A stretch of 64,000 nucleotides of DNA from an uncultured Gammaproteobacteria bacterium (GTDB lineage Bacteria; Pseudomonadota; Gammaproteobacteria; Thiotrichales; Thiotrichaceae), in the NCBI GenBank assembly GCA_963847495.1, contig CAWJZX010000013.1, forward strand, positions 323,716-387,715, in the 5' to 3' direction. The position numbers were made by a program, and so were the translations under genes. The notes below the pieces were generated by a model. It made no database searches. It saw only the letters and a program-made list of their open reading frames with translations, and was not told the DNA's origin. The number at the start of each line of letters is the position of its first letter. The stretch's first letter is position 1. Positions 5,344 to 60,268 of the stretch are shown piece by piece.

Positions 5344-5618
5344 CTATGATTTTTTGGCTTTGAGTTGACGTAGTTTTTACGCTCTTGCTTACTTTGCACA
5401 TGTTCGCGATTAACAAGAACATCTTTTAACTGTTTGCAGGCCAGTTTCCATTCAGGTGTGTCCTTAAATTCGATTAACCCAGAGCTGGAGCGAGCCGTTT
5501 GATCCGATAGCTCAAACGAATCATCGCATTTAAGCAGTTCTTACCTACGGCTCATTAAAGAGTCTGTGTGCATTACCTCAAGTTTGGCAAGTGTTTTGGG
5601 TTCTACTTTGTTAGCCAT
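5344..5618 (-). pseudogene. Decayed paralog of the 98-aa gene at 3327..3623
   Basis: Translation is MANKVEPKTLAKLEVMHTDSLMSRR*ELLKCDDSF..., against MVSKVEIKTIEVLEKMHTGTLMSRRVALLKCEESF in the intact copy. There is an in-frame TAA at 5541-5543 and a 1-nt deletion in the lysine-rich tail. Confidence 0.7.
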
Positions 5619-5654
5619 TTGTTTCTTTATAATCTATTGAAAGAGATTATAAAT

Positions 5655-5751
5655 ACACCCCCCACCTTTTTAGGTATTTTTACTTCGGGCCATCATTAAA
5701 AAACAAATCTGTTGTCTCGTTTCACTCGGCTCATTGAGTTTTTTGAAATGA
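5655..5751 (+). repeat. C-box head plus partial middle and tail modules
   Basis: ACACCCCCCACCTTTTTAGGTATTTTT ... CTGTTGTCTCGTTTCACTCGGCTCATTGAGTTTTTTGAAATGA. Confidence 0.8.
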
Positions 5752-5924
5752 TCCTAGCACTTATGATGAGCTCAGCACTAGATCACCTGTAAGGCGAAAC
5801 TAGCACTTAGTTCGTGTGGGTGATTTTTTGATAATTAATTTTTAACGGCTGAACCATGTGGCGGAGGTCCATTGGGCCGACAGTCGCGCTTGAGTCATTT
5901 TTTAGGCGTAACCATTCGCCTTAT

Positions 5925-6137
5925 TCATTTTTGTAAAGCTAATTCCGCTTCAGTTTTAATGCCAAATTTTTTCATCAATAATCTTGGTGGACAGAAGCCG
6001 GTAAATGAACTTTGCAGGCAGTTAAATCCGACAAATAAAGTAACCCACGTCCAATATGGGTGATGAAACAGAGCCAATAAAGACGTGATCATAACCATGA
6101 TCCCTCCAAATGCAAACAGTGTTCGCTCTATAGACAT
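5925..6137 (-). CDS. DUF2892 / YgaP-like small inner-membrane protein
   Basis: 70 aa with two TM helices and the motif GFNCLQSSFTGFCP. Confidence 0.7.
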   Translation of the reverse strand: MSIERTLFAFGGIMVMITSLLALFHHPYWTWVTLFVGFNCLQSSFTGFCPPRLLMKKFGIKTEAELALQK

Positions 6138-6418
6138 AGCATTACCTCTTGTGTTTATCTTGCGTTGAATAAATATTTCTAAATGTCGTGCGCCTAACAG
6201 TATATTAAAAAGACCGATAGCCTTCTACACAATTATCGTGTCGCTGGACTGATTATTTTACTTGCGTAGTTTCGAAAATACTTCATAAGTGTCTTATCTA
6301 CAACATAAATATTTCACTTTATCAGCTTTCTATCCGCATTAATCGTGCCATCGGCAAACATCATTTTTCGTTTTTTATATAGTTTTATGAGATTGTTCAA
6401 CGAAATAGATATAATAAA

Positions 6419-6445
6419 GACACCCCCTACTTTATAAAGGACTCT
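6419..6445 (+). repeat. C-box head
   Basis: GACACCCCCTACTTTATAAAGGACTC. Confidence 0.7.
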
Positions 6446-6750
6446 TCTAGTTCTAAATAAAGTAGTGACTAAGACAAATAATTACTTGCTTATTGATCAG
6501 CTTTCGCTTGAAACCATTTTATTAGCGAATCTTCGGTTTACGGCTACGATCATCGTCCATCAATTTAACCAGCTATTAAGACAGAATGTTTATAGTAGAC
6601 TATATTCTTAATGTGGGAACGGTAGATTACCGTTAGAAAGAGCATAATGTAAAACAGAAATATATCCGCGGCTTTTTTGTCTGGACACCTCCATCCCATC
6701 GAAAATATTTATTATCATATCAATACGATTTGTAACACAATTTACAGGAG

Positions 6751-7374
6751 ATGCAAGACATGACGATCGATCTTGATAGTGCGAAATCTTCTCTGCCACA
6801 GGGCATGACACTAGAGGAATGGTTCGACAAGCAATTCGCTGAGAAAATGGCTGAGTATCAGGCCAACAAAACACCTAAACTATCCATATTGGTATCCAAG
6901 GGAACACTGGACTGGGCCTATACAACATTTATTATTTCATCTACGGCAGCAGCATTGGACTGGGATGTTTCCGTGTTTTTTACCTTTTATGGGCTATCCC
7001 TGCTGAAAAAAGACATGAAACCCGACATTAGTGCCTTGGGTAATCCGGCCATGCCAATGAAAATGCCGTTTGGGCCCAACTGGTTTAGAGATGTTGAATG
7101 GAATATGCCAAATCTAGTCATGGCCGGAATTCCAGGTTTTGAAAAAGTAGCAACTAGTCTTATGAAGGAAACACTTAAACAAAAAGGTGTCTCACCTGTT
7201 CATGAGTTGCGGGATAATTGTGTTGAATTCGGTGTCGAGTTGATTGCCTGCCAAATGACTGTGGATTTGTTTGGTTGGGAAAAGGAAGACTTTATGCCGG
7301 GTATTTCCGACTGGGCGGGCGCGGCCACCTATTTGACTAAGGCACAGGGTGCTGATGTAAGTTTGTTTATCTAA
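6751..7374 (+). CDS. DsrE/DsrF-like family protein
   Basis: 207 aa. LSILVSKGTLDW...FFTFYGL...ACQMTVDLFG resembles the DsrE/F-like family (COG2210). Confidence 0.55.
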   Translation: MQDMTIDLDSAKSSLPQGMTLEEWFDKQFAEKMAEYQANKTPKLSILVSKGTLDWAYTTFIISSTAAALDWDVSVFFTFYGLSLLKKDMKPDISALGNPAMPMKMPFGPNWFRDVEWNMPNLVMAGIPGFEKVATSLMKETLKQKGVSPVHELRDNCVEFGVELIACQMTVDLFGWEKEDFMPGISDWAGAATYLTKAQGADVSLFI

Positions 7375-7461
7375 CAGGCGGAAATTGGATGTATTAATGC
7401 AAGTGGTTGTTATGGCTTGACATTATCGGGGCATCTATATATGTCCAAATTATTTTTTCAG

Positions 7462-7490
7462 TTTTCAATCGAGTCTGCCCCTATTGATAC
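7462..7490 (+). repeat. Module I hairpin (solo)
   Basis: TTCAATCGAGTCTGCCCCTATTGATAC; compare 8990-9018 and 10188-10218. Confidence 0.6.
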
Positions 7491-7707
7491 TGTTTTTATG
7501 CTTTCAAGGAGTCTCTGATCAAGTCGATAGTATTTAAGGGCAGAAAAAAGTGTCTGTAAGTTTCACGAAGTGAGCCGTAATAGTCATTCTGCATTCGCTT
7601 TTAAGTCATTTGCAAGCAAAGCACTAAATATTGTGGCGATCTTCGGGGAAGTTTCAGGCACTTTTAGCTAGCTTAAAATTATTGGACTTGATTAGAGCCT
7701 GCTTAAT

Positions 7708-7731
7708 GACACCCCCTACTTTTAGACGGTT
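7708..7731 (+). repeat. C-box head, left part (split by the IS3 element)
   Basis: GACACCCCCTACTTTTAGACGGTT is followed directly by the IS3 end. The T-run and module I resume at 8983-9018. Confidence 0.8.
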
Positions 7732-7762
7732 TGACGTGGTCAAGGTATTTAGTACAACCTAG

Positions 7763-8629
7763 TTAAGCCGCTTTTAGTTGTTTCTCAAAATCATTAGGGC
7801 AGACATAATCCAACGTCGAATGTAAACGAAAGCTGTTATAGAACATGGAAATGTACTGCACTATATCCTGTCTTGCTTCATTTCGGGTTCGGTAGTCATA
7901 CCATTGCACCCGTTCCTGTTTCAAGCTGCCAAAGAAGCTTTCGGCGACAGCATTATCCCAACAATTACCTTTGCGGCTCATGCTGCCTGTGATCTTGTTA
8001 TCCTTTAATAACTGTCTAAAAGCGTCACTGCCATATTGAGAGCCTCGATCCGAATGATGTATTAAGCCTGGCTTTGGTCTTCTTTGCCATAGAGCCATTT
8101 TCAACGCATCACAGACCAGTTTGGCTTTTATCTTTTTGCTTGTACTCCAACCAACGACTTTGCGTGAACAAAGATCAATCACAACAGCCAAATATAACCA
8201 GCCTTCGCCTGTATTGATATAGGTTATATCTGAGACGTAGACCTGATCTCTATCTGATACATTAAATCGGCGCTTGAGGACATTGGGATATACAGGATTC
8301 TGATGGTTACTATCCGTGGTTACCTTGTACTTCTTTTTGCGACGAACGCTGATACCTGCTTCGCACATGAGCTTTCTCACTCTGTTTCGGCTAACAACAT
8401 GGCTCAGGGCATTTAACGCCCTCTTCATCCGACGACTGCCATAGCTAAAGTCCGTTACTATCGCGAGTTCTTTAATCCATTCGAGCATCTCCTGATGCTC
8501 TGCCGTCTTTTGTTTGTTGGCGGTTACCTTGCAGTAATGATAATAGCCTTGACGACTGACACCCAAAACCCGACATTGCAGGCTGACTGGATAGGTATTT
8601 TTATGCTGGGTGATAAACGTGTATTTCAC
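7763..8629 (-). CDS. IS3-family transposase OrfB (DDE integrase core)
   Basis: 288 aa with DDE-region motifs (VSDITYI, HHSDRGSQYGS, NAVAESFF). Confidence 0.9.
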   Translation of the reverse strand: MKYTFITQHKNTYPVSLQCRVLGVSRQGYYHYCKVTANKQKTAEHQEMLEWIKELAIVTDFSYGSRRMKRALNALSHVVSRNRVRKLMCEAGISVRRKKKYKVTTDSNHQNPVYPNVLKRRFNVSDRDQVYVSDITYINTGEGWLYLAVVIDLCSRKVVGWSTSKKIKAKLVCDALKMALWQRRPKPGLIHHSDRGSQYGSDAFRQLLKDNKITGSMSRKGNCWDNAVAESFFGSLKQERVQWYDYRTRNEARQDIVQYISMFYNSFRLHSTLDYVCPNDFEKQLKAA

Positions 8630-8919
8630 TTCGTTTCGTTGGCAAAAAATACCGTCGCTTTTTTTAGGATGTCCCTCTCCATTTCAAGACGCTTGATACG
8701 CGCTTTAAGCTTGCGATTCTCTGATTGTTCTGGACTCAACTTACCTTTGCCGACAAAGGCGTGTTTGTCCTTCTCTTGATATTCTTTGACCCAGCGACTG
8801 AGTGCATTGATACCCACTTCAAGATTAAGTGCAGCCTCTGCTCTTGAGTAACCTTGTTCAAGGACGAGACTCACTGCATCCTGTTTAAATTCTTTAGAAT
8901 AGCTTTTTCTTTTTGTCAT
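8626..8919 (-). CDS. IS3-family transposase OrfA (HTH)
   Basis: 97 aa, MTKRKSYSKEFKQDAV..., with a leucine-zipper-like C-terminus. The slippery sequence A AAA AAG lies at 8658-8666 (minus strand). Confidence 0.9.
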   Translation of the reverse strand: MTKRKSYSKEFKQDAVSLVLEQGYSRAEAALNLEVGINALSRWVKEYQEKDKHAFVGKGKLSPEQSENRKLKARIKRLEMERDILKKATVFFANETK

Positions 8920-8982
8920 AATATTTACCTCAGTTAAGTTTAATATGCTTAACTGGGTTGTATCAAATATTAGACCACTTCA

Positions 8983-9018
8983 TTTTTCAAAAATTAATTG
9001 AGTCTGGCCCCATTGATT
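8983..9018 (+). repeat. C-box head T-run plus module I (right part of the element split by the IS3)
   Basis: TTTTTCAAAAATTAATTGAGTCTGGCCCCATTGATT. Confidence 0.7.
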
Positions 9019-9045
9019 GAGCAACCAGTAAAAGACCCCTAAATC

Positions 9046-9921
9046 TTATGAAAAACTAAAAGAACTCAGCCTGCTTCGAATTTTGGATGAAAGCTCTGGA
9101 TTATTAGGCGCCAGCATATTGGTCACATTAACGATCATTTCACGCGCCGCATTATCTTTATAGTTTGAATCTATTCTCATGATTTCAAACAGGTGATCTA
9201 CCGCCTGCTCATAGTCTCTGTCTGCAATCAGGCAAACGGCCAGATCGAAATGCACATCACAATTATTGGGGTTAGTTAACAATGACTGCTGTAGCTGGAA
9301 TTTACCCGGTGTTTTTGCGGCTAAATCCAGAAAGGTTAACTGTCCTATCAACGATTTACCCATGTCGGTCTTCTTTGCAGAATCGGGTAATTGATTAAAC
9401 AGACTGTTAGCCTGATCAAGCTCGTTCAAATCAATAAAGATTTGAGCCATATCCATCGCAATTTTGGTATTTGATGGATCTTGTTGGATAGCCTGAGTCA
9501 GTAATTGAATAGCGGCTACAGTATCAGCCTTCATGTGCTTTTCACGTGCTTCCAGACGCATTTCGTCTGCCTGCGAATACACACCAAATTCTTTTAACAC
9601 ATCACGTAATTCGTTTTGCTTCAGTAAGCCTTCTTCCGATTTAACCACCTCGCCATTCTTAAATACCTTTAAGCTCGGTACGTTTTCAATCGCGTATTGT
9701 TCCTTCAGCTCAGGCTGTTCATCAATATCGACTTTGGCAAAAATAAACTGCCCTGCAAATTCTTTAGCAAGAATCGATAGCTCATCCGACATTTGAAAAC
9801 ACGGCCCAGACCAGACACCCATAAACTCAACCAAAACAGGTAGTTTGTGTGAATTCTGGATAACTGCATAATCAAAATTCTGTTTGGAAACTTCGAAAAT
9901 GAAAACTTCACTATTACTCAC
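9046..9921 (-). CDS. Thioredoxin-domain plus TPR co-chaperone (YbbN/CnoX-like)
   Basis: 291 aa with an N-terminal thioredoxin fold (VLVEFMGVWSGPC) and a C-terminal TPR region. Confidence 0.75.
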   Translation of the reverse strand: MSNSEVFIFEVSKQNFDYAVIQNSHKLPVLVEFMGVWSGPCFQMSDELSILAKEFAGQFIFAKVDIDEQPELKEQYAIENVPSLKVFKNGEVVKSEEGLLKQNELRDVLKEFGVYSQADEMRLEAREKHMKADTVAAIQLLTQAIQQDPSNTKIAMDMAQIFIDLNELDQANSLFNQLPDSAKKTDMGKSLIGQLTFLDLAAKTPGKFQLQQSLLTNPNNCDVHFDLAVCLIADRDYEQAVDHLFEIMRIDSNYKDNAAREMIVNVTNMLAPNNPELSSKIRSRLSSFSFS

Positions 9922-9980
9922 AATCTCAATCCTTGTATGGACATGACGGAAACAGGAATAATCGCTTATTTATGTAAACG

Positions 9981-10062
9981 GTGCTATATCACTTTGTAGA
10001 CAAGTGAATCGAGGTTGGTATATTTATTCTTAAGTCACCCCCCTACTTTTAGGCACTTTTTA
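9981..10062 (+). repeat. Module J plus I-like segment plus C-box head
   Basis: GTGCTATATCACTTTGTAGACAAGTGAATCGAG...GTCACCCCCCTACTTTTAGGCACTTTTT. Module J is repeated at 17051-17083. Confidence 0.8.
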
Positions 10063-10085
10063 ATAGAATATAAATACCAACATCC

Positions 10086-10218
10086 CTTATTTCGACCACA
10101 TCGACGATTCCTTGCAGAATCTACGATGGACTTTCTTGGCTCTTGGTGAGCCTAAGAAAGACACCCCCTACCTTTTTAGCACTTTTCCATAAATCAATCG
10201 AGTCTGACCTCATTGATT
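10086..10218 (+). repeat. Module D plus C-box head plus module I
   Basis: TTTCGACCACATCGACG..GAATCTACGATGGACTTTCTTGGCTCTTGGTGAGCCTAAGAAAGACACCCCCTACCTTTTTAGCACTTTT..AATCAATCGAGTCTGACCTCATTGATT. The right arm overlaps the stop of ORF 10210. Confidence 0.85.
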
Positions 10219-10953
10219 CTTTCCCTGGACATTGAAACCACCAAGTATTGAATAAAAATCCGATAAATCGATTTCGCGTTTGTCTGCCAGGGGTTTAACT
10301 TCAGAATAAAGAAATGAATAAAATATGTTTTTTTCTTTAAAGTCTGATGGGAAATAAATATATAAATAGCCATGGCCAACATGTGAGTCTTTATACTGTC
10401 TGTACGTCTTGTACGTCATTGTGTAGAAGTGTTTATTATGTATATTAGTTTCTGACTTTTTTACATCTTTTAATTGATACATCCCCTTCATGACACCCTG
10501 CGCAATCATGTTGGATTCTTCGCCCTTACGGAAGTTATCAGCTACCCAGCGTTCAGAATGCATACCTCCGTAAATACGTGATGCATCCTTCTCAATAACA
10601 ACGATTGCTCTTGAAACGGTGGGTTGCCATCCCTTTTTCTCTACCTGTTTAAATTCCACCACCTGGTGCTGTGGAAATGTCTTTAAATCCCAATCACGGC
10701 CTAGATTGTTCTCTACTGTATAGCGTTTCATCTTGATTGTTGCACCAGAGCGTTTTTGTTGCACTTTTTCAGACTTTTTTTTCTCTGCGATTTGGGTTCC
10801 AAATGCCCCACTTCCATGCCGGTGCTTAATACCTTCTTTTGGTAAAGGATGGCTATGTACTCTTCCTGCATGAGAATGTGTCACACTCTTGGTTTTTGCC
10901 CACCCTGATACAGAAAGTAAAAGGGCCAGTATAATTACACTAGTTTTTATCAT
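10210..10953 (-). CDS. Secreted protein with an N-terminal His-rich module (paralog P1)
   Basis: Signal peptide followed by SVTHSHAGRVHSHPLPKEGIKHRHGSGAFG. The C-terminal domain is unrelated to P2 and P3. Confidence 0.7.
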   Translation of the reverse strand: MIKTSVIILALLLSVSGWAKTKSVTHSHAGRVHSHPLPKEGIKHRHGSGAFGTQIAEKKKSEKVQQKRSGATIKMKRYTVENNLGRDWDLKTFPQHQVVEFKQVEKKGWQPTVSRAIVVIEKDASRIYGGMHSERWVADNFRKGEESNMIAQGVMKGMYQLKDVKKSETNIHNKHFYTMTYKTYRQYKDSHVGHGYLYIYFPSDFKEKNIFYSFLYSEVKPLADKREIDLSDFYSILGGFNVQGKNQ

Positions 10954-11020
10954 TTTGAGTTTTCCACTTTTTTATGAGACGGGAATTACTATAGCTTTTA
11001 GCTGTGCATCTACTCCTCTG

Positions 11021-11848
11021 TCAGTCCATCATGGCATTGATATCACGTAGCATCTTGTTGGCACGTTCCAGAAGCACTGTGTCACCTACGTTGATATTGT
11101 TTTTGAGTATGCATTTGATTTTAAGAACACCACCTTCTTCATTTATTGTTTTGCGTATGCCGCGCCCCAAGTGTTCACCTTTATCAATCTTTCCATCCTT
11201 GTTAATGTCATACAGCCACGCAGTTACTCCTCCACCCAGGTTTTTGTCCTGATTCAGGTCAACATCAGGATAAACCCAAATATCAATCTTTCCATCGTAA
11301 TCCGAGTCAATCAGGTGATGGAATGTCCATACAAGCTTGAAGGTGGGCTTTGTGGTGAATAAACTCCCCTGGTAGTAAACAAGATAATCAGCTTTACCAT
11401 CGTTATTGCGATCGAAAATAAAACCGAAATCCATCTTTGCGGCTCCGGTTTCCGGGGAATAAGAAAATTGGTCAGGACGTTTATCACCGTTGATATCGAT
11501 GAGCTTTAGAATGGGATAGTTCTTAAATGTCCTGGTTCTTGAGGATTTCAAAACTACTCGCGTACGCTATTTCCAAAGCTGCCTGGCGCGTTTATCAAGA
11601 GCATTATAGGTATCTAGATTGCGTTTAATGCGACCAGTTTCAGATTGCCTCGATTTAGCCTGCTTTTTCTCAGATTTTACGGTTACAGGTACACCAAACG
11701 CCCCTCCTCCATACTGATGCCTAATGCCTTGTTTCGGTAAAGGATGGCTATGTACTCTTCCTGCATGAGAATGTGTCACACTCTTGGCCTGTGCCCACCC
11801 TGATACAGAAAGTAAAAGGGCCAATATAATTACACTGTATTTTATCAT
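11021..11848 (-). pseudogene. His-rich-module paralog P2, interrupted by one in-frame TAG; C-terminal Dx[DN]xDG calcium-binding-type repeats
   Basis: Track ORFs 11567..11848 and 11021..11551 are in the same frame (276 codons in total). They are separated only by a TAG at 11567-11569 (...RARQLWK*RTRVVLKSS...). Repeats present: DINGDKRPD, DRNNDGKADY, DSDYDGKIDIW, DINKDGKIDKGE. Confidence 0.7.
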
Positions 11849-12026: not shown

Positions 12027-12779
12027 TCATTTCTTTTTCTTTAGCTCACGGACTCTTTGACGGTAGACATCTGGATTATCCGTAACAGATATTGATTTTA
12101 TAATTTGTAGCGCCATATCGTGACCATTGGTCAAGTGGCTTGCCGTTATTACTGCCACCCAGTCAGGTTTTACCTCCACAAAATACCTAATAACCTCAGC
12201 TATATACCTCTTTCCACCACGCGTAAAATTCCATCGACCTATCCACTTTATAGAACCCGAATAGTTAGATTTAAAAGGCACCACTTTAGAACTATCGGCT
12301 GGCTTCCCATGCCTTTTCTCGTTGAATATTACGGTCGCAGACACAGCACGAGCCAATAAGTCTTTACCTTGATACCCCTTAACATCTGTTCCTGGACCCA
12401 GCGAAACACCTGCCTGTTTTTTGCGGTCAGTTGATGTCAGCAAACCTGTTTGATTTGTACGCTGCCACATTCCAGGCAACGAGAAACTAAAACTAAGCAG
12501 ATTTTTGTTGATTTCAAAATAATAAGTCCGATTCTCGCTTGGGATAGGAATAACAGCCGTTTCACTATATCGAATTGGCCCACTCTTTATAGATGGAGCA
12601 GAAGCTACATCTCCACCCGGAACAGCCAAACCAATAGCCCCACCCCCATGCCGGTGCTTAATGCCTTCTTTTGGTAATGGATGAGAATGTTCTCTACCTC
12701 CATGAGTATGAGGTACTGGAGCAGCATAAATAATTGTGCAACATAAGCTTATCAATATTAAAGCTATTAGATTATTCAT
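12027..12779 (-). CDS. Secreted protein with an N-terminal His-rich module (paralog P3)
   Basis: Signal peptide followed by PVPHTHGGREHSHPLPKEGIKHRHGGGAIG, then a distinct C-terminal domain. Confidence 0.7.
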   Translation of the reverse strand: MNNLIALILISLCCTIIYAAPVPHTHGGREHSHPLPKEGIKHRHGGGAIGLAVPGGDVASAPSIKSGPIRYSETAVIPIPSENRTYYFEINKNLLSFSFSLPGMWQRTNQTGLLTSTDRKKQAGVSLGPGTDVKGYQGKDLLARAVSATVIFNEKRHGKPADSSKVVPFKSNYSGSIKWIGRWNFTRGGKRYIAEVIRYFVEVKPDWVAVITASHLTNGHDMALQIIKSISVTDNPDVYRQRVRELKKKK

Positions 12780-13190: not shown

Positions 13191-13318
13191 GTATAAGCGG
13201 GGTCAGCGTAAACTTTAATACCTTGCTTTGCAGATAAATATTATTGGCAAGGAGGCTGTCGTACTGATAGATTTATAGCTGTATCTTTTAATGCTGTCGC
13301 ATTTTGTACTTAAAAAAA

Positions 13319-13530
13319 GACACCCCCCTACTTTTAAGTGATTTTTATGCGGCTGCGCCTTCCCTACGGGTCAGCATTAAACGACAATGCTTTTGTCTCG
13401 ATAAATCTCGGCTCGTTTTTGTTCTTTAAAAACGTAAATAGAATTTATGCAGAGCTGAGGCGGTTTTTATGCGGCTGCGCCTTTACTTCAGATCAACTTT
13501 AAAATAACAGTCTTGTTGTTTCACTATGTC
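13319..13530 (+). repeat. C-box head plus module B plus tail-like segment plus a second partial B
   Basis: GACACCCCCCTACTTTTAAGTGATTTTTATGCGGCTGCGCCTTCCCTACGGGTCAGCATTAAACGACAATGC...TTATGCAGAGCTGAGGCGGTTTTTATGCGGCTGCGCC... Confidence 0.85.
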
Positions 13531-13748: not shown

Positions 13749-13836
13749 AGGTCGGATAAGCATAGCGCCATCCGACATGACCATGATTGATACCACACAA
13801 ATGTCGGATGGCGTACCTTATCCGACCTACCGCGCT
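13749..13836. repeat. REP-like palindromic doublet
   Basis: AGGTCGGATAAG..CGCCATCCGACAT - loop - ATGTCGGATGGCG..CTTATCCGACCTAC. It resembles enterobacterial REP (…CTTATCCGGCCTAC). Confidence 0.8.
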
Positions 13837-13842
13837 AATTAT

Positions 13843-15357
13843 CTAAAAAAATGGCACCAAAGTTAACTTAGAATAATCAAGGTATTGCAGTGGGTTAGCT
13901 TGCAAACCTGTATTTTCATAAAATCGACTTAAATCATTTGAACTTGAAGCTGCCTCTATTGCTTCTCGTTTTGTTGCTGATTCAATTGCCTGCCTCATTG
14001 TAATAATTGTTTTGTCATAGTCTGGTTTATAGCTGTTTATATTATTCATATTTTGGCAATTCGACATATTCTTAAATTCAAATTCATTTGCCACATTGCC
14101 CAGTATTTGACAGTTTCTATTATCAAATACTTTTATTGAACCCGATGCTTGTCGACTGTTTTTTCCTTGATCTACCAATAACACAAAATTACCTGCAACC
14201 ACATTATCAATCCCTCTGGAGAGCGTAATGCCGTGATGTTGATTAGATGCACAGAAATTATTTATTATCTTTATGTTCGCGTATGGCAAAGATCTAAATC
14301 TAAAAAATGAATCGCCTTTTTCATCTCGAGTAAAAAAGCACTGCCAACCTGTTAAATTGGGATTAGTTAAAGGCGTATCACCCACGAGCGAAATATTATT
14401 ACGAATAGTTACATTTGTGTTGCTGCGCTTCATTTTAGTCGTATATAGCTGGATCATATCGCTATGAACATACTTTATTTTGCGAAAGCGTTGTTTATAA
14501 AAAACAGGGGTTCTGGTATGCATTAAATTTGAATCAAATAATGCGTTATTGATACCACCACCAGAAAACATATCGCTAGCCACTCTGATTGCTTTATTGG
14601 CTATCGCATAAAATGAATTCATTTCATTAAACTCAACCGCATGAAATAAATCGGTAAAAAGCGTCCTATCAATAATGATGTTATTACTTTGTTTGATAAG
14701 CAGACCTGACTGGCTGGCCAAAATCGCATCTATATTTCCGCGTTTTAACGCGGTTAAATTATTTTTTTTATCACTAAAATGCAAATTGCTTAAACGAACG
14801 TTATTTGAACTCCTAATCTGCCATGAGTAATTGTTTCGAGAGGTACCCCATAAATTGTTTATCTTAAAATGACTGATGGTTACATTGTGTAGGTTCTCCC
14901 ATGTTATGTTTTCAAAAAATGGAGCCTGATTTTCACCTAACATACCAAGAATAAGCACTGGTTCATCAAAACGATGCTTTTGTTTGTAATGATAACGCTT
15001 ATCTCTGAGGTTGCTTCTTACTACAATAATCTCGCCACCAGTGGCGTTATCTAGAACCTCAGACAGTTGCTTAAAATTAAAAACGTTGAACACTATATTG
15101 TTATCTATAATTTCAGCAGGATTAATTTTAATAAGCTTGCTTGAAGATAAACTTGGCATCTCAATTTGAAATTGAGAGTTATCCTTAGCAAAGGACACAA
15201 ATTCCTCTGCATAACAGTGGCTATTTGTGATAAATAAAAATATTAAAAGAATGTAGTTAGCAATTTTTAAGTGAGGAAATAAGTGATTCAAACTGCTTTG
15301 TTGATTGTTTTTATTATTAAAGCCTGACCTTCTTTTCATTATAATATTTTCCTTCAA
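13843..15357 (-). CDS. Parallel beta-helix repeat protein, visibly very AT-rich
   Basis: 504 aa with an N-terminal hydrophobic segment and repeated N-rich turns (IRSSNNVRLSNLHF, IKQSNNIIIDRTLF, NVTIRNNISL) typical of right-handed beta-helix proteins. Confidence 0.6.
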   Translation of the reverse strand: MKENIIMKRRSGFNNKNNQQSSLNHLFPHLKIANYILLIFLFITNSHCYAEEFVSFAKDNSQFQIEMPSLSSSKLIKINPAEIIDNNIVFNVFNFKQLSEVLDNATGGEIIVVRSNLRDKRYHYKQKHRFDEPVLILGMLGENQAPFFENITWENLHNVTISHFKINNLWGTSRNNYSWQIRSSNNVRLSNLHFSDKKNNLTALKRGNIDAILASQSGLLIKQSNNIIIDRTLFTDLFHAVEFNEMNSFYAIANKAIRVASDMFSGGGINNALFDSNLMHTRTPVFYKQRFRKIKYVHSDMIQLYTTKMKRSNTNVTIRNNISLVGDTPLTNPNLTGWQCFFTRDEKGDSFFRFRSLPYANIKIINNFCASNQHHGITLSRGIDNVVAGNFVLLVDQGKNSRQASGSIKVFDNRNCQILGNVANEFEFKNMSNCQNMNNINSYKPDYDKTIITMRQAIESATKREAIEAASSSNDLSRFYENTGLQANPLQYLDYSKLTLVPFF

Positions 15358-15534: not shown

Positions 15535-15608
15535 AGAGCGCCATCCGACATGACCATGATTGACCTCAAACAATTGTCGGATGACGTAACCTTATCCGAC
15601 CTACCGCG
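15535..15608. repeat. REP-like palindrome (partial doublet), a direct repeat of 13765-13838
   Basis: GCGCCATCCGACATGACCATGATTGA...TTGTCGGATGACG..CTTATCCGACCTACCGCGCT. Confidence 0.8.
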
Positions 15609-15673: not shown

Positions 15674-17041
15674 TGATGAAATGGTCTCCTCCCCTTAATT
15701 CGGCATCTAAGTACCATAATTGGAGATGAAATATTTCCCAATTAAACAAAGAAGGAGACCACCATGAATATTAGCGCCATCGGGCTAGATATTGCAAAAC
15801 AGATTTTTCACCTTGTAGGCTTAGATGATCAAGGCAATCAAGTACTAAAGAAAACTCTTCGACGAACAAAGTTATTAGCTTACTTTGCTAACCTTAACCC
15901 CTGTGTTATTGGCATAGAAGGTTGTGCAAGTTCACATTATTGGGCACGTGAGCTGAATAAGCTCGGACATCAAGTTAAGCTACTTCCAGCACACTATGTA
16001 AAACCTTATGTTCGAGGTAACAAAAATGATTATAACGATGCTTTAGCCATTGCTGAGGCATGTCGAATTCCTGAAATGCGAGAAGTCAGAACTAAAACTG
16101 TTGAACAGCAAAGCATACAAGCCATGCACCGTTTTCGTCGAGGAGCGGTTGCAGATAGAACAAAGCTTTGTAATCAGGTACGCGGGTTACTTGCCGAGTT
16201 TGGTATTGTTATCAAACAAGGTATCAGCTCTTTGAGAAAGAAGCTCCCAGAAATACTCGAAGATGGAGAAAACCAATTACACTGGATGTTTCGAGATGCA
16301 TTAGCTCTAAAATACAGACAACTATGCGAACTTGATGAATTGGTGAAAGAGCTAACCATCATGATTGAGAGAGAAGCCAAACAACATCTGCAAATCAAAC
16401 AATTGCAAAGTATTCCAGGGTTTGGGGCAATTGTAGCAAGTACCTTCTTTAGCGTGATTGGTGATGGAAAGACTTTTAGCAAAGGCAGAGATGTATCTGC
16501 ATCATTGGGATTGGTGCCACGGCAACACAGTAGTGGAGGTAAAAACATCCTGCTGGGTATTAGTAAACGAGGTGATAAATATCTACGAAGCCTTTTAGTT
16601 CATGGAGCTAGATCAGTTGTGAATCACGCCCATAAGAAAGATGATGCACTGAGTCTTTGGGTTACTCGTTTAGTAAAAACACGAGGAAAGAATAAAGCCA
16701 CGGTTGCTCTTGCGAATAAACTGGCAAGAATTGCATGGGCAGTAACCATTAGCGGTAAGCCATACCAAAGAAATTTTGTGATTTAAAGAAAGTAGTAGAA
16801 ATAAACACATCAACGATTTGCGAGAGACAACAAGTAACGATGACATTATAGGTAAGACCGACATACTGAAACCTGCCTCATCCGAAGGATAGTAAATCCG
16901 ATAGGTCGATTAGGACAGTATGTGCAGACTTCATCAAGGCTCGGGATCTAAAACAATCCTATTATGAAGCCGGATATACGAAAGCAAATCTATCCCTGTC
17001 AATATTACACGTTGTCTTGCAAAAATGGAGGAGACCATATA
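15674..17041 (+). mobile_element. IS110-family element of the IS1111 type, inserted in a REP-like arm
   Basis: It interrupts AATTGTAGGT|CGGATAAG (the intact version is at 13744-13760). Subterminal inverted repeats are ATGGTCTCCTCC (15681-15692) and GGAGGAGACCAT (17027-17038). The 5' lead is short (about 90 nt) and the 3' non-coding tail is long (about 255 nt). Confidence 0.85.
15764..16786 (+). CDS. IS110-family (DEDD) transposase
   Basis: 340 aa with GLDIAKQ, GIEGCASSHYW, KNDYNDALAI and C-terminal IPGFGAIVAS motifs. Confidence 0.92.
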   Translation: MNISAIGLDIAKQIFHLVGLDDQGNQVLKKTLRRTKLLAYFANLNPCVIGIEGCASSHYWARELNKLGHQVKLLPAHYVKPYVRGNKNDYNDALAIAEACRIPEMREVRTKTVEQQSIQAMHRFRRGAVADRTKLCNQVRGLLAEFGIVIKQGISSLRKKLPEILEDGENQLHWMFRDALALKYRQLCELDELVKELTIMIEREAKQHLQIKQLQSIPGFGAIVASTFFSVIGDGKTFSKGRDVSASLGLVPRQHSSGGKNILLGISKRGDKYLRSLLVHGARSVVNHAHKKDDALSLWVTRLVKTRGKNKATVALANKLARIAWAVTISGKPYQRNFVI

Positions 17042-18557: not shown

Positions 18558-18800
18558 TTTACTTCTCCTTTAATTATAAGTAGTTACCAGGCCCTGAAAA
18601 CATCTTGTTAAATTAGTTAGTTCTAAACGCAGAATGCAAAACCCTAAAACGGGACTTTCAGAGGGATAATTAACGTATAGCATTTATTTGCCCATAATTG
18701 CCAAATATTCTATCAATCCATGCTTTAGATCATTGTTTATTTAATAAATATCAATTTAAGCATGTCGAACACTCCAGGAACACTGTAGATATACAGTAAA

Positions 18801-18828
18801 CACACCCCCTACTTTTAGCTACTTTTTA
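18801..18828 (+). repeat. C-box head overlapping the recD stop codon
   Basis: CACACCCCCTACTTTTAGCTACTTTTTA. The recD stop TAA is the complement of 18815-18817. Confidence 0.8.
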
Positions 18829-20698
18829 TCTGCACTTCAATCCTCGTAGCTTTAACCACATCTGCCTTAACCCCAGCCACCAAAACAGCTTCACTCGCCA
18901 CTATATCGACTTTCTGTTTGGCCCGCGTTATTCCGGTATATATTAATTGTCTTGTTAGCAGTGGCATTTCTTCGTGCGGCAAGATCAAAACCACTTGATT
19001 GAATTCTGAGCCTTGGCTTTTGTGAATAGTCATTGCCCATGTGGTTTCGTGCGCTGGCAGTCGTACTGGGGAGAATGCTTTGAACTCGCCTTCAGCTGCA
19101 GGAAAAAACACTTTTACTTCACCATTTTCAATCAGTGTGATTCCGGTATCGCCATTGAACAGGCCTTTGTTGTAGCTGTTCCGGGTGATCATGATCGGGC
19201 GGCCGTGATACCAGTTAGAGGACAAGCTCTGAGTCTGGCTAGTAGAACGCCTGATTCTGATTAAATCCTGTTTGGCTAGTGCAGTTTCGATGCGTTGGTT
19301 CATTAACACACTGCCGTTTAAGCCACGGCGTAAGGCGCACAGGATTCGGTATTGATTGAAAGTCTCGAAGATTTGTTCGTGAGTCGATGCAGGATTATTC
19401 AGCACTTCAAAATAATGTACCCAGGGTTTTATGAGTTCAGCATCGCGCATCGCTTCTGGTGCGATCAGTTTACAGCCAGTGCGGTTTTGATCTTTTAAAA
19501 CGCTGAGTAAGGTCGCGCTATCGCCTTGATTGGCGGCTATCGCTAACTGGCCGATATCGCTGTCTTCCGAGAAGCGCCAGTTCTTTTTCAAGGTAACGAG
19601 ATGCTCTGATTCTTCCAGACCGGCACAGACATCAGAAAATACCGAACCTGTTTCAACAGACGAGAGCTGGTCCTTATCACCAATCAGAATCAGTTTAGCG
19701 TTTGGCGGAACGGATTCTAGCAGTTTTGACATCAGCGCGATATCGATCATCGAGGCTTCATCCACCAGCACCACATCGGCATTCAAGGGGTTTTGAGCAT
19801 TGTGTTTGAATTGCACGCTACCGCGTTGATAACCCAGAAGTTTATGGATCGTGTTAGCCTCAGTCGGCATCTGCTGTAATAACTCATCGGATAAACCAAG
19901 TTTGCTTTGCAAGGCATTTGTTTCAAGCCGTATCGAGTCCAGCATGCGAATCGCTGCTTTACCCGTTGGCGCGGCTAACAGGATGTTTAAATGTTTGTTC
20001 TTATCAATATTTGAGTCTGAAAGGACACCCCCCCACTTTTTACTCGTTTTTTGCAAAAACTCGCCCTTCGGGCTAGCTAAAGCAGTTGTCTCGCTAACGC
20101 TCGGCTGACCACTTTTTTCAATCAGCAATGCCAGAATGCGAGTAATCGTAGTGGTCTTACCCGTACCCGGCCCGCCCGAGATAATCAGGAATCGTTTTTC
20201 CAGTGCACGGCTGGCTGCTATCTTTTGCCAGTTAACTGGCAAGCCTTCATCTTCAAAATAAATATCCAGACGCTGTTGTGCCCAGTCTTTTTGCTCTTGC
20301 TGATCAGTCCCCTCAGCCTCAGGAAACATTCTGGATTTAATCTGATCCGCCAGACGCTGTTGATATTGCCAGTAACGGCGCAGGTACAAATAGCCCTGAT
20401 CAATAATCAGCGGTTTGTAATCCCCTGCTTCGCCCACTACTTTGGTTTGCAATAATTCGACTTGCTGTTCATCCGTTATGGCAATCGCAATCTGGCCTTC
20501 GCGGGTGTGTTTGCTGATTTCCAGGGTGCAGGCTTTGAGGGTTTTATTCTGTGCCTTGTTTGACTCTTGCAATCCATTTAACTCCTGCATTAAATCAGCA
20601 AGCTGGTAATCGAGCGCTTCATAAGCTGCCGGCTCAGCTTCTATTGTGTCAGGCGCTTGTGTTGATACGGCAAAATCCATTGTGAGTTGTTCAGCCAT
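18815..20698 (-). CDS. recD: Exodeoxyribonuclease V alpha subunit RecD, carrying an in-frame repeat-derived insert
   Basis: 627 aa with Walker A GGPGTGKTTT, then LLAAPTGKAA, and helicase motifs through TIHKSQGSE. The start overlaps the recB stop (ATGGCTGA). Confidence 0.92.
   Translation of the reverse strand: MAEQLTMDFAVSTQAPDTIEAEPAAYEALDYQLADLMQELNGLQESNKAQNKTLKACTLEISKHTREGQIAIAITDEQQVELLQTKVVGEAGDYKPLIIDQGYLYLRRYWQYQQRLADQIKSRMFPEAEGTDQQEQKDWAQQRLDIYFEDEGLPVNWQKIAASRALEKRFLIISGGPGTGKTTTITRILALLIEKSGQPSVSETTALASPKGEFLQKTSKKWGGVLSDSNIDKNKHLNILLAAPTGKAAIRMLDSIRLETNALQSKLGLSDELLQQMPTEANTIHKLLGYQRGSVQFKHNAQNPLNADVVLVDEASMIDIALMSKLLESVPPNAKLILIGDKDQLSSVETGSVFSDVCAGLEESEHLVTLKKNWRFSEDSDIGQLAIAANQGDSATLLSVLKDQNRTGCKLIAPEAMRDAELIKPWVHYFEVLNNPASTHEQIFETFNQYRILCALRRGLNGSVLMNQRIETALAKQDLIRIRRSTSQTQSLSSNWYHGRPIMITRNSYNKGLFNGDTGITLIENGEVKVFFPAAEGEFKAFSPVRLPAHETTWAMTIHKSQGSEFNQVVLILPHEEMPLLTRQLIYTGITRAKQKVDIVASEAVLVAGVKADVVKATRIEVQIKSS
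20024..20119 (+). repeat. C-box head plus F-like module, in frame inside recD
   Basis: GACACCCCCCCACTTTTTACTCGTTTTTTGCAAAAACTCGCCCTTCGGGCTAGC...GTTGTCTCGCTAACGCTCGGCTGACCACTTTTTTC. It is near-collinear with the intergenic copy at 34957-35059. Confidence 0.85.
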
Positions 20699-23600
20699 TC
20701 ACAACCGCCATACTAGGTAATCGCATAAACAAAGCATCCAATGCCTGAATCAATTCAAGGCTGGGTTTATGAAAAAAGACACCCCCCCACTTATAAGCAC
20801 TTTTTGAAGATTTCTGTAGTTGTTTAGGTGCTGTATTCATTCCGCGTATAAACAGATAATAAACACCGCCGATATGCGTTTCCCAGCTGTAATCAGCAAG
20901 TCTCTGTTCTAAATACCGATGTAAAGCAACGCAGTAGAGCAGATATTGCAGGTAATAATGAGAATGTGCCATTGCCTCGAATAGGCTGTCTTGCTGATAA
21001 TCAGAGAGACTATTCGATTTGTAATCGGCAACATAGTATTTGCCATCATGCTCGAAAATCAGGTCGATAAAACCTTTCAGATAACCTTCGACTTCTTCGA
21101 AATAGAGACCATCAACCGCATCACGGATTTGTTGCCAGTTGGCATCATCCTTTGGTAGATGCTGAAACAGAATCTGCTTTAAATGATCTGTCTGCAATCG
21201 TTCCAGCGGTAGATAGAATTCCATCTCATTGAGGCGTTTCTCATTGCTTAACAGGTTTAGAGACAATCCATCTGTTAGCTCCGCCTGTAAACTCTGTTGC
21301 ATTAACTGCAACGCGCTCGCCTGGTGTTTTGGATCAAAACCGTATTTATTCAAGCTCGCTTCAATCACATCAGTTTGTTCTTCAATGGGTTTGATGAAAT
21401 CCAGATTCTCGTAGATTTCATGCAATACCGTACCTGCGGTTGCACCACGCGGGAATTCATCCACCTCAATGGTATTCTGAGCCTCTGCCTTATTCATCTG
21501 TAGTGAGCCAGACATTGAATCAGCAATGGAATCATAATCAGGCGTTTCAGCATGAGCACCTGAGGTCAAACCACTGAAACTGGTGATCTGTGCCTGCTTT
21601 TTAATTTCTGCAGTAAAGTGTCGTGCAACGAGTTTTTCTTCAGAAACTGTCTTCTGATATTTCAAATCTGTCGGATAGTCTGGAAGCGCATTCAGTGAAA
21701 TATGCGGATTACTTTGGGTCAGGCTTTGCAGGTTTTGATTGTATGCCTCAAAGTATTCGGCTTTTTCAGTAGTAGCTTGTTTCGAGTTTCCAGAAGGAAT
21801 AACTTTTCCATCAGTGAGCAACCAGCCAAATGCGGATTTATCCGGATTTCCACTAATCGCTTCGGGAAACACGACTACGTTACATTGATACTTGGCACGA
21901 GTCAGCGCGACATATAATAAGCGTGCGTCTTCGGCGCTTTCTTCCGCTGCTTTCAATGCTTTATGTTCGTCACTTTCAGGCGAACCAATTTCGAGATAAC
22001 TTAGCTTATCTTTATGAAATGTATAAATTTTATCGGATGGACGATTACTACTCATGCCCACAAATGGACAGTAAACAATCGGGTATTCCAGACCTTTGGA
22101 TTTATGGATGGTGACGATTTTTACCAGGTCATCGTCGCTTTCAAGGCGCAATACGGTCTCATTCGAGCTGGCATTTTCCTGTTGTTTTTTCAGCCAGCGC
22201 AATACTTCAGCCATACCGAGCATTTGCTGGCGTGATGTGTGATGAATCAATTCTGACAGCTGTAAAATATTACTTAAGCGACGCTCGCCATTATCATAAT
22301 CCATCAGGCGCTGATGCATGTTCTCGGCTTTCATCAAGCTTCGCATCATCGGCATAAAACCCTGTTTATTCCATTGATGATGATAATTTTGCATCTTCAT
22401 CAGGACTTCTTCCCAGGCTTCGCTATCGGTCTGGAAACGGATTAAATCTTCGGCCTGTCGACCCATCATTTCTGTCACCAATGCGCGACGGATTTCATCT
22501 TCTTTTTGCGGCGACACAATCGCCGTGAGTAAACGCAGCATTTCAGCGGCTTCATGTGTATCGTAAATACTCTCTTTGCTACTCTGAACGCTGGCAACTC
22601 CGCGTGCATTCAAAGCTGCCTTGATAACATCAGCCTGCGTATGTGAACGCACCAGAATTGCCATATCTCCGCCGCTAATTGCCTCATCGCCAATTCTGGC
22701 TTCACCGTTTGTGGCTTGATTAAGTAAGGATGCAATATCGCCTGCCACGGCGTTTGCAATCTGTTTGCGAATGAAGTCGGCGGTGGGTTTATCGTCACCA
22801 GTTTCATATCGCCAAAAATTTAAAGGCTTGCTGTTATTCTGGCTAACTAATTCAGCGGTTGTTTTATCTCCTGATTTTACCTGAACGTATTCAATCCCCT
22901 CATCCTTAAATGGATTTTCTGTCTTTGAATACAATGCGTTAAAGGCGCTAATTAAATCAGGATGTGAACGCCAATTGGTTTGAAGCGTGTAATGATTCGT
23001 TTCAGAAGTGTCCGCCTTGGCTTTTAAATAGGTATGAATATCACCGCCACGGAAACTGTAAATAGCCTGTTTTGGATCACCCACCAGAAATACCGTCTGG
23101 TCTTTTTGGGAAGTGTAAATAGAACTAAAAATATCGTACTGGATAGGATCGGTATCCTGAAACTCATCTATCAAGGCCGCCGGGTATTTACGGCTTAATT
23201 CTTTTGCTAATTGTGGATGCGCTTTTAACGTTTGCTGCATCTGCAATAACAAATCATCAAAGGATAAAACGCCTAAGCGCTGTTTTTCCTTAGGGAGTTC
23301 AGTTTGTAAATGTTGCAGTAACTCTACGCGGATATTGTTCAGGAAATCATCTGAGCTTTTATCCAGCTCAGTCCAGAGATCGAGGAAATCCTGCCATTGC
23401 TGGAAAAATGGATGTTCAATGGGTTCTACGTTTTTAGCAGTTTTTTTAACTTTGGGTGTTGTACCCAACCAAACCATTTTTTTAACATCAAGCTGATAAG
23501 GCAGATCATCTAACAGCGATAGTTTATCCATTTCTGTAATGACAAAATCACAGTTATCAATTAAGCCTTTATAGTAATGGTTCTCGTAGCCGGGAATCCT

Positions 23601-24305
23601 TAAAAGCTCGCTTATCTGCTGACCTTCATTACGCCATGTTTGCATCGCCTGAGTATAAAACTGCTCTAGCTCTTTCCATTTCTCCGCTTTTACTTTTTCG
23701 TTTTCTGGGCCGCAGATACTCAGGTAAGGTTTACCAACGTGCCTGACAATATCCTTTAATAATGAATCAGGTGTGATCTTTTCCTGATGCAATTTAAAAA
23801 CCAGTGACCTAGGTGCTTTGGCAAATCGACGGCGCCAAAAATCATCGGTGAGTTTTTGCATGATTTCAGAATCATCTTCCAGTAACTCACTATCAAACGA
23901 CAGATTCGCTTCAAAAGCATTCTCGCTCAAACTACGCTGGCAAAAACCGTGAATGGTAAAAACTGCGGCTTCGTCCATGCTTAGCTTGGCGCGATTTAAA
24001 CGTAGAACAGCTTCCTCTTGATCTTCAATTTTTTCGATTAGACGACTGTATTCGTGTTCCGCTTGATAATCGGGATCTGAAAATGCATTGAGTGCCGCTA
24101 CGATTCGTTTACGAATATTATCACGCAGTTCTTTGGTTGCAGCATCGGTGAAGGTCACGACCAGTATTTGATCGACTGTGAGGTTTTTTTCCAGTATTAA
24201 ACGCAGATACAATAGCGTTACTGTCCATGATTTACCCGTCCCGGCACTGGCTTCAATCAGATTGATTGATTCGAGTGGAATTGAATAAGGATCAAGTTCT
24301 TGCAT
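20691..24305 (-). CDS. recB: Exodeoxyribonuclease V beta subunit RecB
   Basis: 1204 aa with N-terminal IEASAGTGKSWT, UvrD-type helicase motifs, and the C-terminal nuclease motif GFIDLIFEHDGKYYVADYKSN. Confidence 0.93.
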   Translation of the reverse strand: MQELDPYSIPLESINLIEASAGTGKSWTVTLLYLRLILEKNLTVDQILVVTFTDAATKELRDNIRKRIVAALNAFSDPDYQAEHEYSRLIEKIEDQEEAVLRLNRAKLSMDEAAVFTIHGFCQRSLSENAFEANLSFDSELLEDDSEIMQKLTDDFWRRRFAKAPRSLVFKLHQEKITPDSLLKDIVRHVGKPYLSICGPENEKVKAEKWKELEQFYTQAMQTWRNEGQQISELLRIPGYENHYYKGLIDNCDFVITEMDKLSLLDDLPYQLDVKKMVWLGTTPKVKKTAKNVEPIEHPFFQQWQDFLDLWTELDKSSDDFLNNIRVELLQHLQTELPKEKQRLGVLSFDDLLLQMQQTLKAHPQLAKELSRKYPAALIDEFQDTDPIQYDIFSSIYTSQKDQTVFLVGDPKQAIYSFRGGDIHTYLKAKADTSETNHYTLQTNWRSHPDLISAFNALYSKTENPFKDEGIEYVQVKSGDKTTAELVSQNNSKPLNFWRYETGDDKPTADFIRKQIANAVAGDIASLLNQATNGEARIGDEAISGGDMAILVRSHTQADVIKAALNARGVASVQSSKESIYDTHEAAEMLRLLTAIVSPQKEDEIRRALVTEMMGRQAEDLIRFQTDSEAWEEVLMKMQNYHHQWNKQGFMPMMRSLMKAENMHQRLMDYDNGERRLSNILQLSELIHHTSRQQMLGMAEVLRWLKKQQENASSNETVLRLESDDDLVKIVTIHKSKGLEYPIVYCPFVGMSSNRPSDKIYTFHKDKLSYLEIGSPESDEHKALKAAEESAEDARLLYVALTRAKYQCNVVVFPEAISGNPDKSAFGWLLTDGKVIPSGNSKQATTEKAEYFEAYNQNLQSLTQSNPHISLNALPDYPTDLKYQKTVSEEKLVARHFTAEIKKQAQITSFSGLTSGAHAETPDYDSIADSMSGSLQMNKAEAQNTIEVDEFPRGATAGTVLHEIYENLDFIKPIEEQTDVIEASLNKYGFDPKHQASALQLMQQSLQAELTDGLSLNLLSNEKRLNEMEFYLPLERLQTDHLKQILFQHLPKDDANWQQIRDAVDGLYFEEVEGYLKGFIDLIFEHDGKYYVADYKSNSLSDYQQDSLFEAMAHSHYYLQYLLYCVALHRYLEQRLADYSWETHIGGVYYLFIRGMNTAPKQLQKSSKSAYKWGGVFFHKPSLELIQALDALFMRLPSMAVVNG
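20778..20805 (+). repeat. C-box head in frame inside recB
   Basis: GACACCCCCCCACTTATAAGCACTTTTT. Confidence 0.8.
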
Positions 24306-48903: not shown

Positions 48904-48969
48904 GGGGAGAGATTAGGTTAGAACTGAAACTGTTTCAATGGATTATAAATGAGATTTTATATTTAAAAG

Positions 48970-55413: not shown

Positions 55414-55425
55414 TTCATTTAAAGA

Positions 55426-60181: not shown

Positions 60182-60268
60182 AGTAATTGAGTATAGTTCA
60201 AATATTTTAGCATATAGTCATCTATAGAAAGTTACTCGCAGCTATTAGCTATGAAATCTAATTAAATG

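Follow-up and report, generated by a model that had tools for sequence, protein, structure and literature searches.

The DNA analysed here is a stretch of 64,000 nucleotides (nt), referred to as the window, from an uncultured gammaproteobacterium of the family Thiotrichaceae (positions 323,716 to 387,715 of contig CAWJZX010000013.1, assembly GCA_963847495.1), and it carries on its minus strand an intact recD gene with a member of an interspersed repeat family lying in frame within it (Table 1). The predicted product matches the E. coli RecD chains (E=4.8e-103), and the superfamily 1B (SF1B) helicase motifs, the RecD fold and the neighbouring recB gene (20691-24305), whose end overlaps the recD start, together identify it as RecD. 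After the Walker A motif the minus strand reads GGPGTGKTTTITRILALLIEKSGQPSVSETTALASPKGEFLQKTSKKWGGVLSDSNIDKNKHLNILLAAPTGKAA with no stop codon, and the repeat copy, which follows the Walker A helix and precedes the APTGKAA strand, encodes KSGQPSVSETTALASPKGEFLQKTSKKWGGV together with residues on either side; the peptides SVSETTALASPK and GEFLQK form part of this reading, which would be translated as an internal segment of RecD. An earlier examination of the DNA letters (the sequence-only reading) had pointed out an in-frame repeat at this place as a 96-bp element at 20024-20119. The element is real and is indeed read through in frame, but its extent has to be enlarged at both ends, to the 105 nt given in Table 1.

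Membership of the recD segment in the family was evaluated with an nhmmer profile made from the six other long copies, all intergenic, with the recD copy left out. The segment is matched at E=7.5e-14 (47 bits) over profile positions 4-121 of about 127, which excludes the concern that the similarity might prove insignificant on proper alignment. Near-collinearity with an intergenic element at 34957-35059, also proposed previously, holds up well: alignment of 20010-20130 with 34945-35070 gives a mean column identity of 81% with gaps counted, and the two share an exact 15-mer, ACTCGCCCTTCGGGC. A 26-nt pattern from the head of the element, allowing up to three mismatches, is found in two places only, these same two copies, and shuffled sequences are expected to contain none. 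The recD head is likewise recovered (E=2.6e-6) by a second profile built from 25 intergenic heads.

The recD copy contains no in-frame stop codon, whereas the intergenic copies contain between one and five in each minus-strand frame, so that the copies surviving within genes must have been screened or altered in a way that leaves the frame open. One position bears directly on this, as the family consensus CCCCCCTAC is replaced in recD by CCCCCCCAC, giving a TGG codon rather than TAG. This substitution (CCAC for CTAC) had been noted in the sequence-only reading as a feature of the coding copy, and it is present as described, but CAC and ACC variants are also found in intergenic copies (for example at 55418 and 34959). 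The change therefore need not post-date the insertion, and may be older than the arrival of the repeat in recD.

Several observations show how RecD accommodates these extra residues. Alignment with the E. coli protein places 4 unaligned residues (192-195) opposite 40 (196-235) in the window protein, so that the segment is much longer here, as the sequence-only reading had stated (about a dozen residues between the two motifs in E. coli against about 45). The AlphaFold2 (AF2) model of the protein has a mean predicted local distance difference test (pLDDT) score of 84 and template modelling (TM) scores of 0.79-0.82 to the RecD of RecBCD structures (8b1t_D), with a coil at residues 198-238 (pLDDT 45-53) connecting the helix at 181-197 and the strand at 239-243. 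The insert is thus predicted to form a disordered 35-residue surface loop, with its exposure judged from a monomer prediction. The helicase motifs are all invariant, and comparison with four orthologues gives a ratio of nonsynonymous to synonymous substitution rates (dN/dS) of 0.11-0.15, showing that recD is under purifying selection.

The closest RecD proteins from named organisms are those of Cocleimonas (Thiotrichaceae) at about 65% identity, and proteins from metagenomes reach 77-86%. We compared across these relatives the length of the spacer separating GxGKT[T/S/F] from APTGKA, counted from the last residue of the one to the first of the other. Among 30 RecDs with less than 50% identity the spacer is 23-28 residues and a head-like peptide is never seen, such that the insert is absent from every one of these more distant orthologues; among 86 with at least 50% identity it ranges from 24 to 80 residues (median 39) and at least 46 contain a head-like peptide; and in the window RecD it is 59 residues, head-like peptide included. 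The median loop length is 39 residues with heads and 26 without. The flanking DNA behaves in the same way, with loci L001-L012 having heads in their flanks and each also having a head in the recD loop, and L014, L015 and L017-L024 having heads in neither location. Genomes free of the repeat are therefore also free of the insert, contrary to what would be seen if the insert were ancestral protein sequence shared with orthologues that lack the family, and these comparisons show that it is restricted to the Cocleimonas clade.

Although the proposal of a lineage-restricted insert is borne out, it is not a single event of 96 bp. In the four closest relatives, L027, L001/L002 and L028 (77-86% identity), the recD loop contains only a short head of about 30 nt, GAAAAAAGTG-CYY-AWAAGTGGGGGGGTGTC, which is read as EKSA[QYH]KWGGV. 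When aligned with the window DNA, L001, L002, L027 and L028 show a single gap of 66 nt, bounded by AAAAAGTG on one side and AAAAGTGGGGGGG/TAAAAAGTGGGGGGG on the other, with identical flanks; the net gain in the window is 66 nt, or 22 codons. L003 (79% identity) contains a different and longer body as well as a second insert. The orthologous spoU-icl spacer is polymorphic in the same way, with short and long forms distinguishing L001 from L027 and the window, and the junction concerned, after CTACTTTTA, is identical. With the difference confined to one 66-nt block and the head common to the relatives, parsimony indicates that the head is the older component and the body is lineage-specific, strongly suggesting a two-step origin for the recD insert.

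We envisage that an ancestor shared with the nearest relatives acquired the head in the loop joining the Walker A helix to strand beta-2 of helicase domain 1A, and that the 66-nt body would have been added later in the window lineage, just past the head core at the junction that follows CTACTTTT. The body could have been copied from another member of the family by template switching or gene conversion, anchored by homology in the head (about 18 nt) and the tail (about 9 nt), or could have been acquired by site-specific insertion at the head junction; addition by one or other of these routes is the mode we favour. Only those events that preserve the reading frame within a structurally permissive loop would be expected to survive selection, and RecD would be tolerant of the loop.

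The same loop has been visited in other ways in related genomes. All three reading frames of the head are used within it (giving KSAYKWGGV, APKVGGG and PKSGGGV), two heads are present in the loops of P0006 and P0008, and bodies are found in some of the proteins. In L101 and L102 the heads are sense-oriented, encoding KKNTPPLLGHF (from TAAAAAGAACACCCCCCCCCTTTTAGGCCATTTT) and KHTPPLLHD and matching the head profile at E=5e-7 and 9e-4, respectively; as an antisense head could not have given rise to a sense one, these events are independent. The recD loop is thus a hotspot that has been hit repeatedly and independently across the Cocleimonas clade.

RecB provides a second example, with a head in the C-terminal loop of the protein in the context YLFIRGM...GVFFHKPS (Table 1). 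The corresponding loop of C. flava RecB contains KSASKWGGVFY and that of L007 contains a head plus a body, while nothing is present there in L014 and L022-L024. The permissive loop in recD, and another in RecB, have been entered many times independently within this clade. Another head forms the 3′ end of recD itself, an arrangement also seen in L003, L006 and L007, and several more minus-strand genes stop inside a head or within a few nt of one, such as the open reading frame (ORF) at 290-1669. When heads were counted within long ORFs of DNA fetched for 72 unrelated metagenome loci, 4 of 114 lay in frame inside real genes (one DctM, one APH-family kinase and two DUF1365), and the peptides include NSAQKWGGVF and KSAKKWGGVF from antisense heads and DTPLLLG from a sense head. 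Searching a protein database with a 95-residue concatenation of element peptides returned only 8 small hypothetical ORFs, and as RecD itself was missed this search is uninformative as to the number of gene families affected.

Within the window there are 33 copies of the head, each of about 30 nt (AAAAAGACACCCCCCTACTTTTAGGCRSTTTTT; consensus tAAAAaGACACCCCCC joined to TACTTTTAGGCrsTTTTT), of which seven are long forms. In these the head is followed by a body of about 65-75 nt ending GTTGTCTCG..CTCGGCT..CACTTTTT (also written ..C(A)CTTTTT), and other modules too may come after heads, such as GAAATGACTAAAAGAACTTATGCAAAGCT..GGTTTTT. Most heads are situated 0-40 nt past the stop codons of genes of either strand; the intergenic copy singled out by the sequence-only reading, for example, begins 1 nt past the stop of the + strand gene 33878-34948. 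All 33 heads lie on the + strand, with genes on both strands. The reference copy and the three further long forms in Table 1 have E values from 2.6e-37 to 2.2e-25. A short hairpin (GGCTCTTGGTGAGCC-TAAGAAAG or CGTAGCTTCGCTACG-AAA) precedes several heads (10154, 42411, 52881; 54542, 58864), and these hairpins may be further mosaic modules or terminators beside which the heads sit.

Table 1. Coordinates of the host genes, repeat copies and insertion sequences. Positions are those of the window unless a related locus is named.
Feature	Position	Strand	Remarks
recD (RecBCD alpha subunit, SF1B helicase)	18815-20698	-	Intact ORF of 627 aa; hosts the repeat
Complete long-form repeat copy in recD	20019-20123	+ (antisense to recD)	105 nt, 35 codons; nhmmer profile
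Head module of the recD copy	20018-20053	+	TGAAAGGACACCCCCCCACTTTTTACTCGTTTTTTG; ...KKWGGVLS on the coding strand
Body in recD, lineage-specific by parsimony	20041-20109	+	69 nt replacing 3 nt of the short allele; encodes approximately GQPSVSETTALASPKGEFLQKTS
Tail motif in the recD copy	20085-20106	+	GTTGTCTCG-CTAACG-CT-CGGCT, intact
Head at the recD 3′ end	18798-18829	+	Supplies the last three codons and TAA stop (..IKSS, stop)
Head in the recB C-terminal loop	20772-20806	+	In frame; minus strand reads KSAYKWGGVFF; E=1e-5
Intergenic long-form copy singled out earlier	34950-35070	+	E=9.9e-24, itself in the profile
Family reference, top-scoring uninterrupted long form	48963-49085	+	nhmmer
Further long forms	5648-5756; 13313-13430; 60261-60373		nhmmer
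Example heads	10032-10063; 13312-13348; 48962-48999	+	Head profile
IS110-family insertion sequence	31123-32311	+	Transposase 31339-32283; in the tail of long form 31026-31122
IS110-family transposase genes	15764-16786; 31339-32283; 53116-54123	+	All co-oriented with the repeats
In-frame heads in genes of relatives	L068 4563-4594; L075 679-713; L099 704-739; L080 1122-1155		DctM, APH-family kinase, DUF1365

The repeat is not palindromic and has no significant fold. Folding of four copies on both strands gave z scores from -1.4 to +0.25 relative to shuffled sequences, none of them significant, and RNAalifold found no consensus pairs in the repeat alignment; we have accordingly abandoned a palindromic reading of the element, with both single-copy and consensus folds being no better than their shuffled controls. 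No pair of terminal inverted repeats flanks any copy in the window, and the element ends (AAAAAGACAC.. and ..CACTTTTT) are complementary only through a 6-nt A/T run. The bodies are flanked by similar NNNNTTTTT units that could be duplications or parts of the element. Rfam and transfer RNA scans of the window yielded no match, which sets the repeat apart from known RNA families. A Y1/IS200-type mobilizer was entertained as one such gene adjoins a head in L027, but a tblastn search with this L027 Y1 transposase found no Y1 transposase or REP-associated tyrosine transposase (RAYT) in the window, no link could be established, and the candidate was set aside. Literature searches covering repeats in Cocleimonas, the motif strings and miniature transposable elements with inverted repeats (MITEs) of Thiotrichaceae revealed nothing on this family.

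The window does contain mobile elements that interact with the repeat. An IS110-family insertion sequence (IS), whose transposase matches Pfam PF01548 and PF02371, lies in the tail of the long form at 31026, where comparison with uninterrupted copies defines the junctions as ...GTTGTCTCGCTGAAGCT, then the IS, then CTCGGCTCATTT (GCT, IS, CTCGGCT), with CT on both sides. The repeat at 52881 is likewise followed by an IS, the second such case, and its left junction (GCT followed by TGTATGG) is identical. Both the position and the orientation of the IS within the repeat are therefore fixed, as in the repetitive extragenic palindromic (REP) sequences and bacterial interspersed mosaic elements (BIMEs) that serve as specific IS110-family targets (Tobes & Pareja 2006, PMC1525189; bridge/seek-RNA papers PMC11208160, PMC11187229); insertion of IS110-family ISs into repeats is well known (PMC1525189, PMC11208160). 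The repeat tail around the landing point is CGCTNNNG-CT-CGGCTCA, and the intact tail motif within recD is, by its sequence, a potential IS110-family landing site. We also considered IS110-family elements as parents of the repeat and rejected them, as they interrupt it and do not have its ends.

Taken as a whole, we think it probable that the recD segment is a tolerated in-frame insertion of a clade-specific, non-palindromic, modular repeat, antisense within the gene and similar in outcome to the Rickettsia palindromic elements (RPEs), and we infer that the loop is neutral and of no use to the protein. Several observations weigh against this interpretation. The direction of the short/long difference depends on parsimony over five relatives, and loss of the body in their common lineage is also possible; no mobilizing enzyme, terminal inverted repeats, clear target-site duplication or Y1/RAYT transposase could be recognized in the window; and the loop heads remain 21-24/26 identical to the consensus where synonymous sites are saturated. 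In the comparison of the window with C. flava recD, dS is 1.58 and the loop head matches the window consensus at 21 of 26 positions, and the L007 head does so at 24 of 26. Such near-consensus heads require re-insertion, homogenization or selection on the DNA motif, and simple neutral tolerance of one old insertion is insufficient to account for them. It is this preservation, together with the strand bias, that lends some interest to the proposal of a functional role for the head as a strand-polar DNA signal (for uptake, Chi-like, or FtsK-orienting) kept by selection or molecular drive even inside recB and recD, where the copies would then exist because the motif itself is favoured at those sites. 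The 33:0 polarity in the window has a two-sided binomial probability of about 2e-10, and the + strand has more C than G throughout, with the G-rich form of the head on the presumptive leading strand. Among 72 independent metagenome loci, heads within a contig are co-oriented 54:12 and the strand with the C-rich head has a mean GC skew of -0.014 (Wilcoxon p=0.02), a weak tendency; uptake sequences, moreover, have been reported from weakly conserved stretches of proteins and in several frames (PMC2817400). Yet the polarity is not absolute elsewhere, with 12/66 discordant, some inverted pairs, some heads flipped within L003/L004, and the sense-oriented heads in the recD loops of L101 and L102. 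Loops with heads are longer (39 versus 26 residues), which argues for arrival by insertion and not by point mutation, and for this reason an uptake-sequence-like origin in place was rejected as the main explanation; in addition the heads carry bodies and modules, as befits a mosaic repeat family. The 28-nt conserved unit far exceeds any known Chi or KOPS (FtsK-orienting polar sequence) motif. We regard a functional signal as an unlikely explanation overall, and it is similarly doubtful that the head is a strand-polar element re-installed or selected at particular sites including the recB/recD loops, although such an element would explain the 33:0 polarity, the near-consensus recB and recD heads, and why the genes for both of these subunits of the enzyme that recognizes polar Chi signals are affected. 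Replication-coupled single-strand spread or a role as a chromosome-orientation or recombination signal could fit it.

Other explanations assign a role to the loops or to the runs within them, and we consider each of these highly improbable. The loops might have been co-opted, for example in evading phage-encoded RecBCD inhibitors under diversifying selection, as two subunits of one anti-phage nuclease are affected and the loop is highly variable in length and sequence within a conserved enzyme. The recurrence of the body frame [SA]ETT[LM]ERSDDDP[KQ]GE, found both in RecD (P0002 and P0021) and in RecB (L007), might be read similarly, but is accounted for by membership in the same DNA family; furthermore, the loop is predicted to be disordered, many members of the clade have no insert or only remnants (spacer 24-28 residues), and unrelated genes (DctM, kinase, DUF1365) carry heads as well. 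A comparably remote prospect is that homopolymers borne by the repeat, which on the coding strand are G7 and A5-A6 runs, turn recD and recB into contingency genes subject to phase variation. There is a GGGGGGG tract and three A5-A6 runs within 105 nt of recD and a G7 run in recB, and in L027 recD (9375-11233) is split by a frameshift directly after the head G-run, while in L001 recB (5498-10023) is fragmented with its C-terminus ending near the head. The L027 lesion is nonetheless a 10-nt gap rather than an altered length of the tract, a single metagenome assembly is the source of both L001 and L027, L002, which is near-identical in recD, has an intact recB, and the dN/dS of 0.11-0.15 is that of a gene that is normally on. 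Seven guanines are also at the low end of tracts known to switch. The breaks in L027 recD and L001 recB could reflect real decay at repeat-borne homopolymers or assembly error. Finally, the notion that the extra residues are ancestral, or that the similarity arises from chance or an assembly artefact, finds no support and can be regarded as refuted, given the E value of 7.5e-14 against an independent profile, the outgroups that are without the insert, the occurrence of the same protein in NCBI and ENA on a 459-kb contig, and the related alleles in independent assemblies.

Other repeated sequences are present in the window. Inverted-repeat arms (ATAGCGCCATCCGACATGACCATGATTGA...) occur at 13762-13823, 15537-15568, 58741-58802 and 60868-60907 and resemble the ends of another mobile element, with the arm pair 13762/15568 bracketing a 504-aa ORF (13843-15357) that has no Pfam match. 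Between 10799 and 12710 there are three tandem paralogous segments, 84-88% identical over 80-177 nt and contained within ORFs 10210-10953, 11021-11551 and 12027-12779, which may represent a small duplicated gene family; the two of these that were scanned (10210-10953 and 12027-12779) have no Pfam match.

Rickettsia offers the best-documented case of small repeats colonizing genes in frame, and the free-living marine Thiotrichaceae (Cocleimonas and relatives) provide a second clear system with an unusually rich natural record, in which one helicase loop displays dozens of events, independent or successive, that span three frames and the two orientations and include nested modules and remnants. 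This makes the loop a case for studying how proteins gain loops from selfish DNA, what makes a site permissive, and how quickly such segments decay. There are also practical consequences, as annotation pipelines will meet peptides of the KWGGV, KVGGG and DTPLLL types and head-derived stops across these genomes, and frameshift calls are likely to arise at the intragenic copies, rich as they are in homopolymers. More attention may be due to the strand polarity of the family than to the recD copy itself.

The closest known parallel is with the RPEs, whose insertions preserve the frame of protein-coding genes (Ogata et al. 2000, as summarized in PMC10969869) and which a 2024 review treats as the extreme case of in-frame repeat fusions that are otherwise ‘not unusual’ (PMC10969869). 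This parallel had been drawn in the sequence-only reading, and it is apt for the outcome but not for the element, which is not palindromic. As with RPEs, the Thiotrichaceae repeat is short, non-autonomous and multi-copy, and is found both between genes and within unrelated ones; the in-frame copy is free of stops, the host protein is kept, and the site is predicted to be compatible with its fold; and conserved peptides recur from one frame of the element. It departs from them in being non-palindromic (fold z of about 0 and no consensus structure) and modular, in its strong co-orientation in the window, in the repeated use of one loop in both orientations, and in its host, which belongs to the Thiotrichaceae and not to Rickettsia.

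Other small repeats share some of these properties. Intragenic enterobacterial repeat units (enterobacterial repetitive intergenic consensus, ERIC) and other MITEs are intergenic repeats that are sometimes found in ORFs, adding peptides to them (Delihas 2007, PMC2759123; PMC10969869). Unlike the Thiotrichaceae repeat, however, they have terminal inverted repeats and long hairpins, and the IS110-family elements in the window do not have the repeat ends that would be expected of a MITE parent. REP and BIME sequences resemble the repeat as IS110 targets, with insertion at a fixed point and in a fixed orientation (GCT, IS, CTCGGCT), but the Thiotrichaceae target has no palindrome and the search of the window for a RAYT was negative. 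Mosaic clusters are also formed by Neisseria intergenic mosaic elements and the BIMEs of E. coli, which are essentially extragenic and built around inverted repeats; the Thiotrichaceae family is alike in having a small set of modules variably joined at conserved junctions. DNA uptake sequences also consist of a short motif at about one per 2 kb, read in several frames at poorly conserved protein positions (Findlay & Redfield 2009, PMC2817400), but they arise in place without a change in length and are about 9-12 nt long, whereas the head, at about 30 nt, brings extra length and further modules with it and shows strand polarity in the window (33:0). The phenomenon in recD is therefore of a known kind, produced by a different and previously undescribed element.

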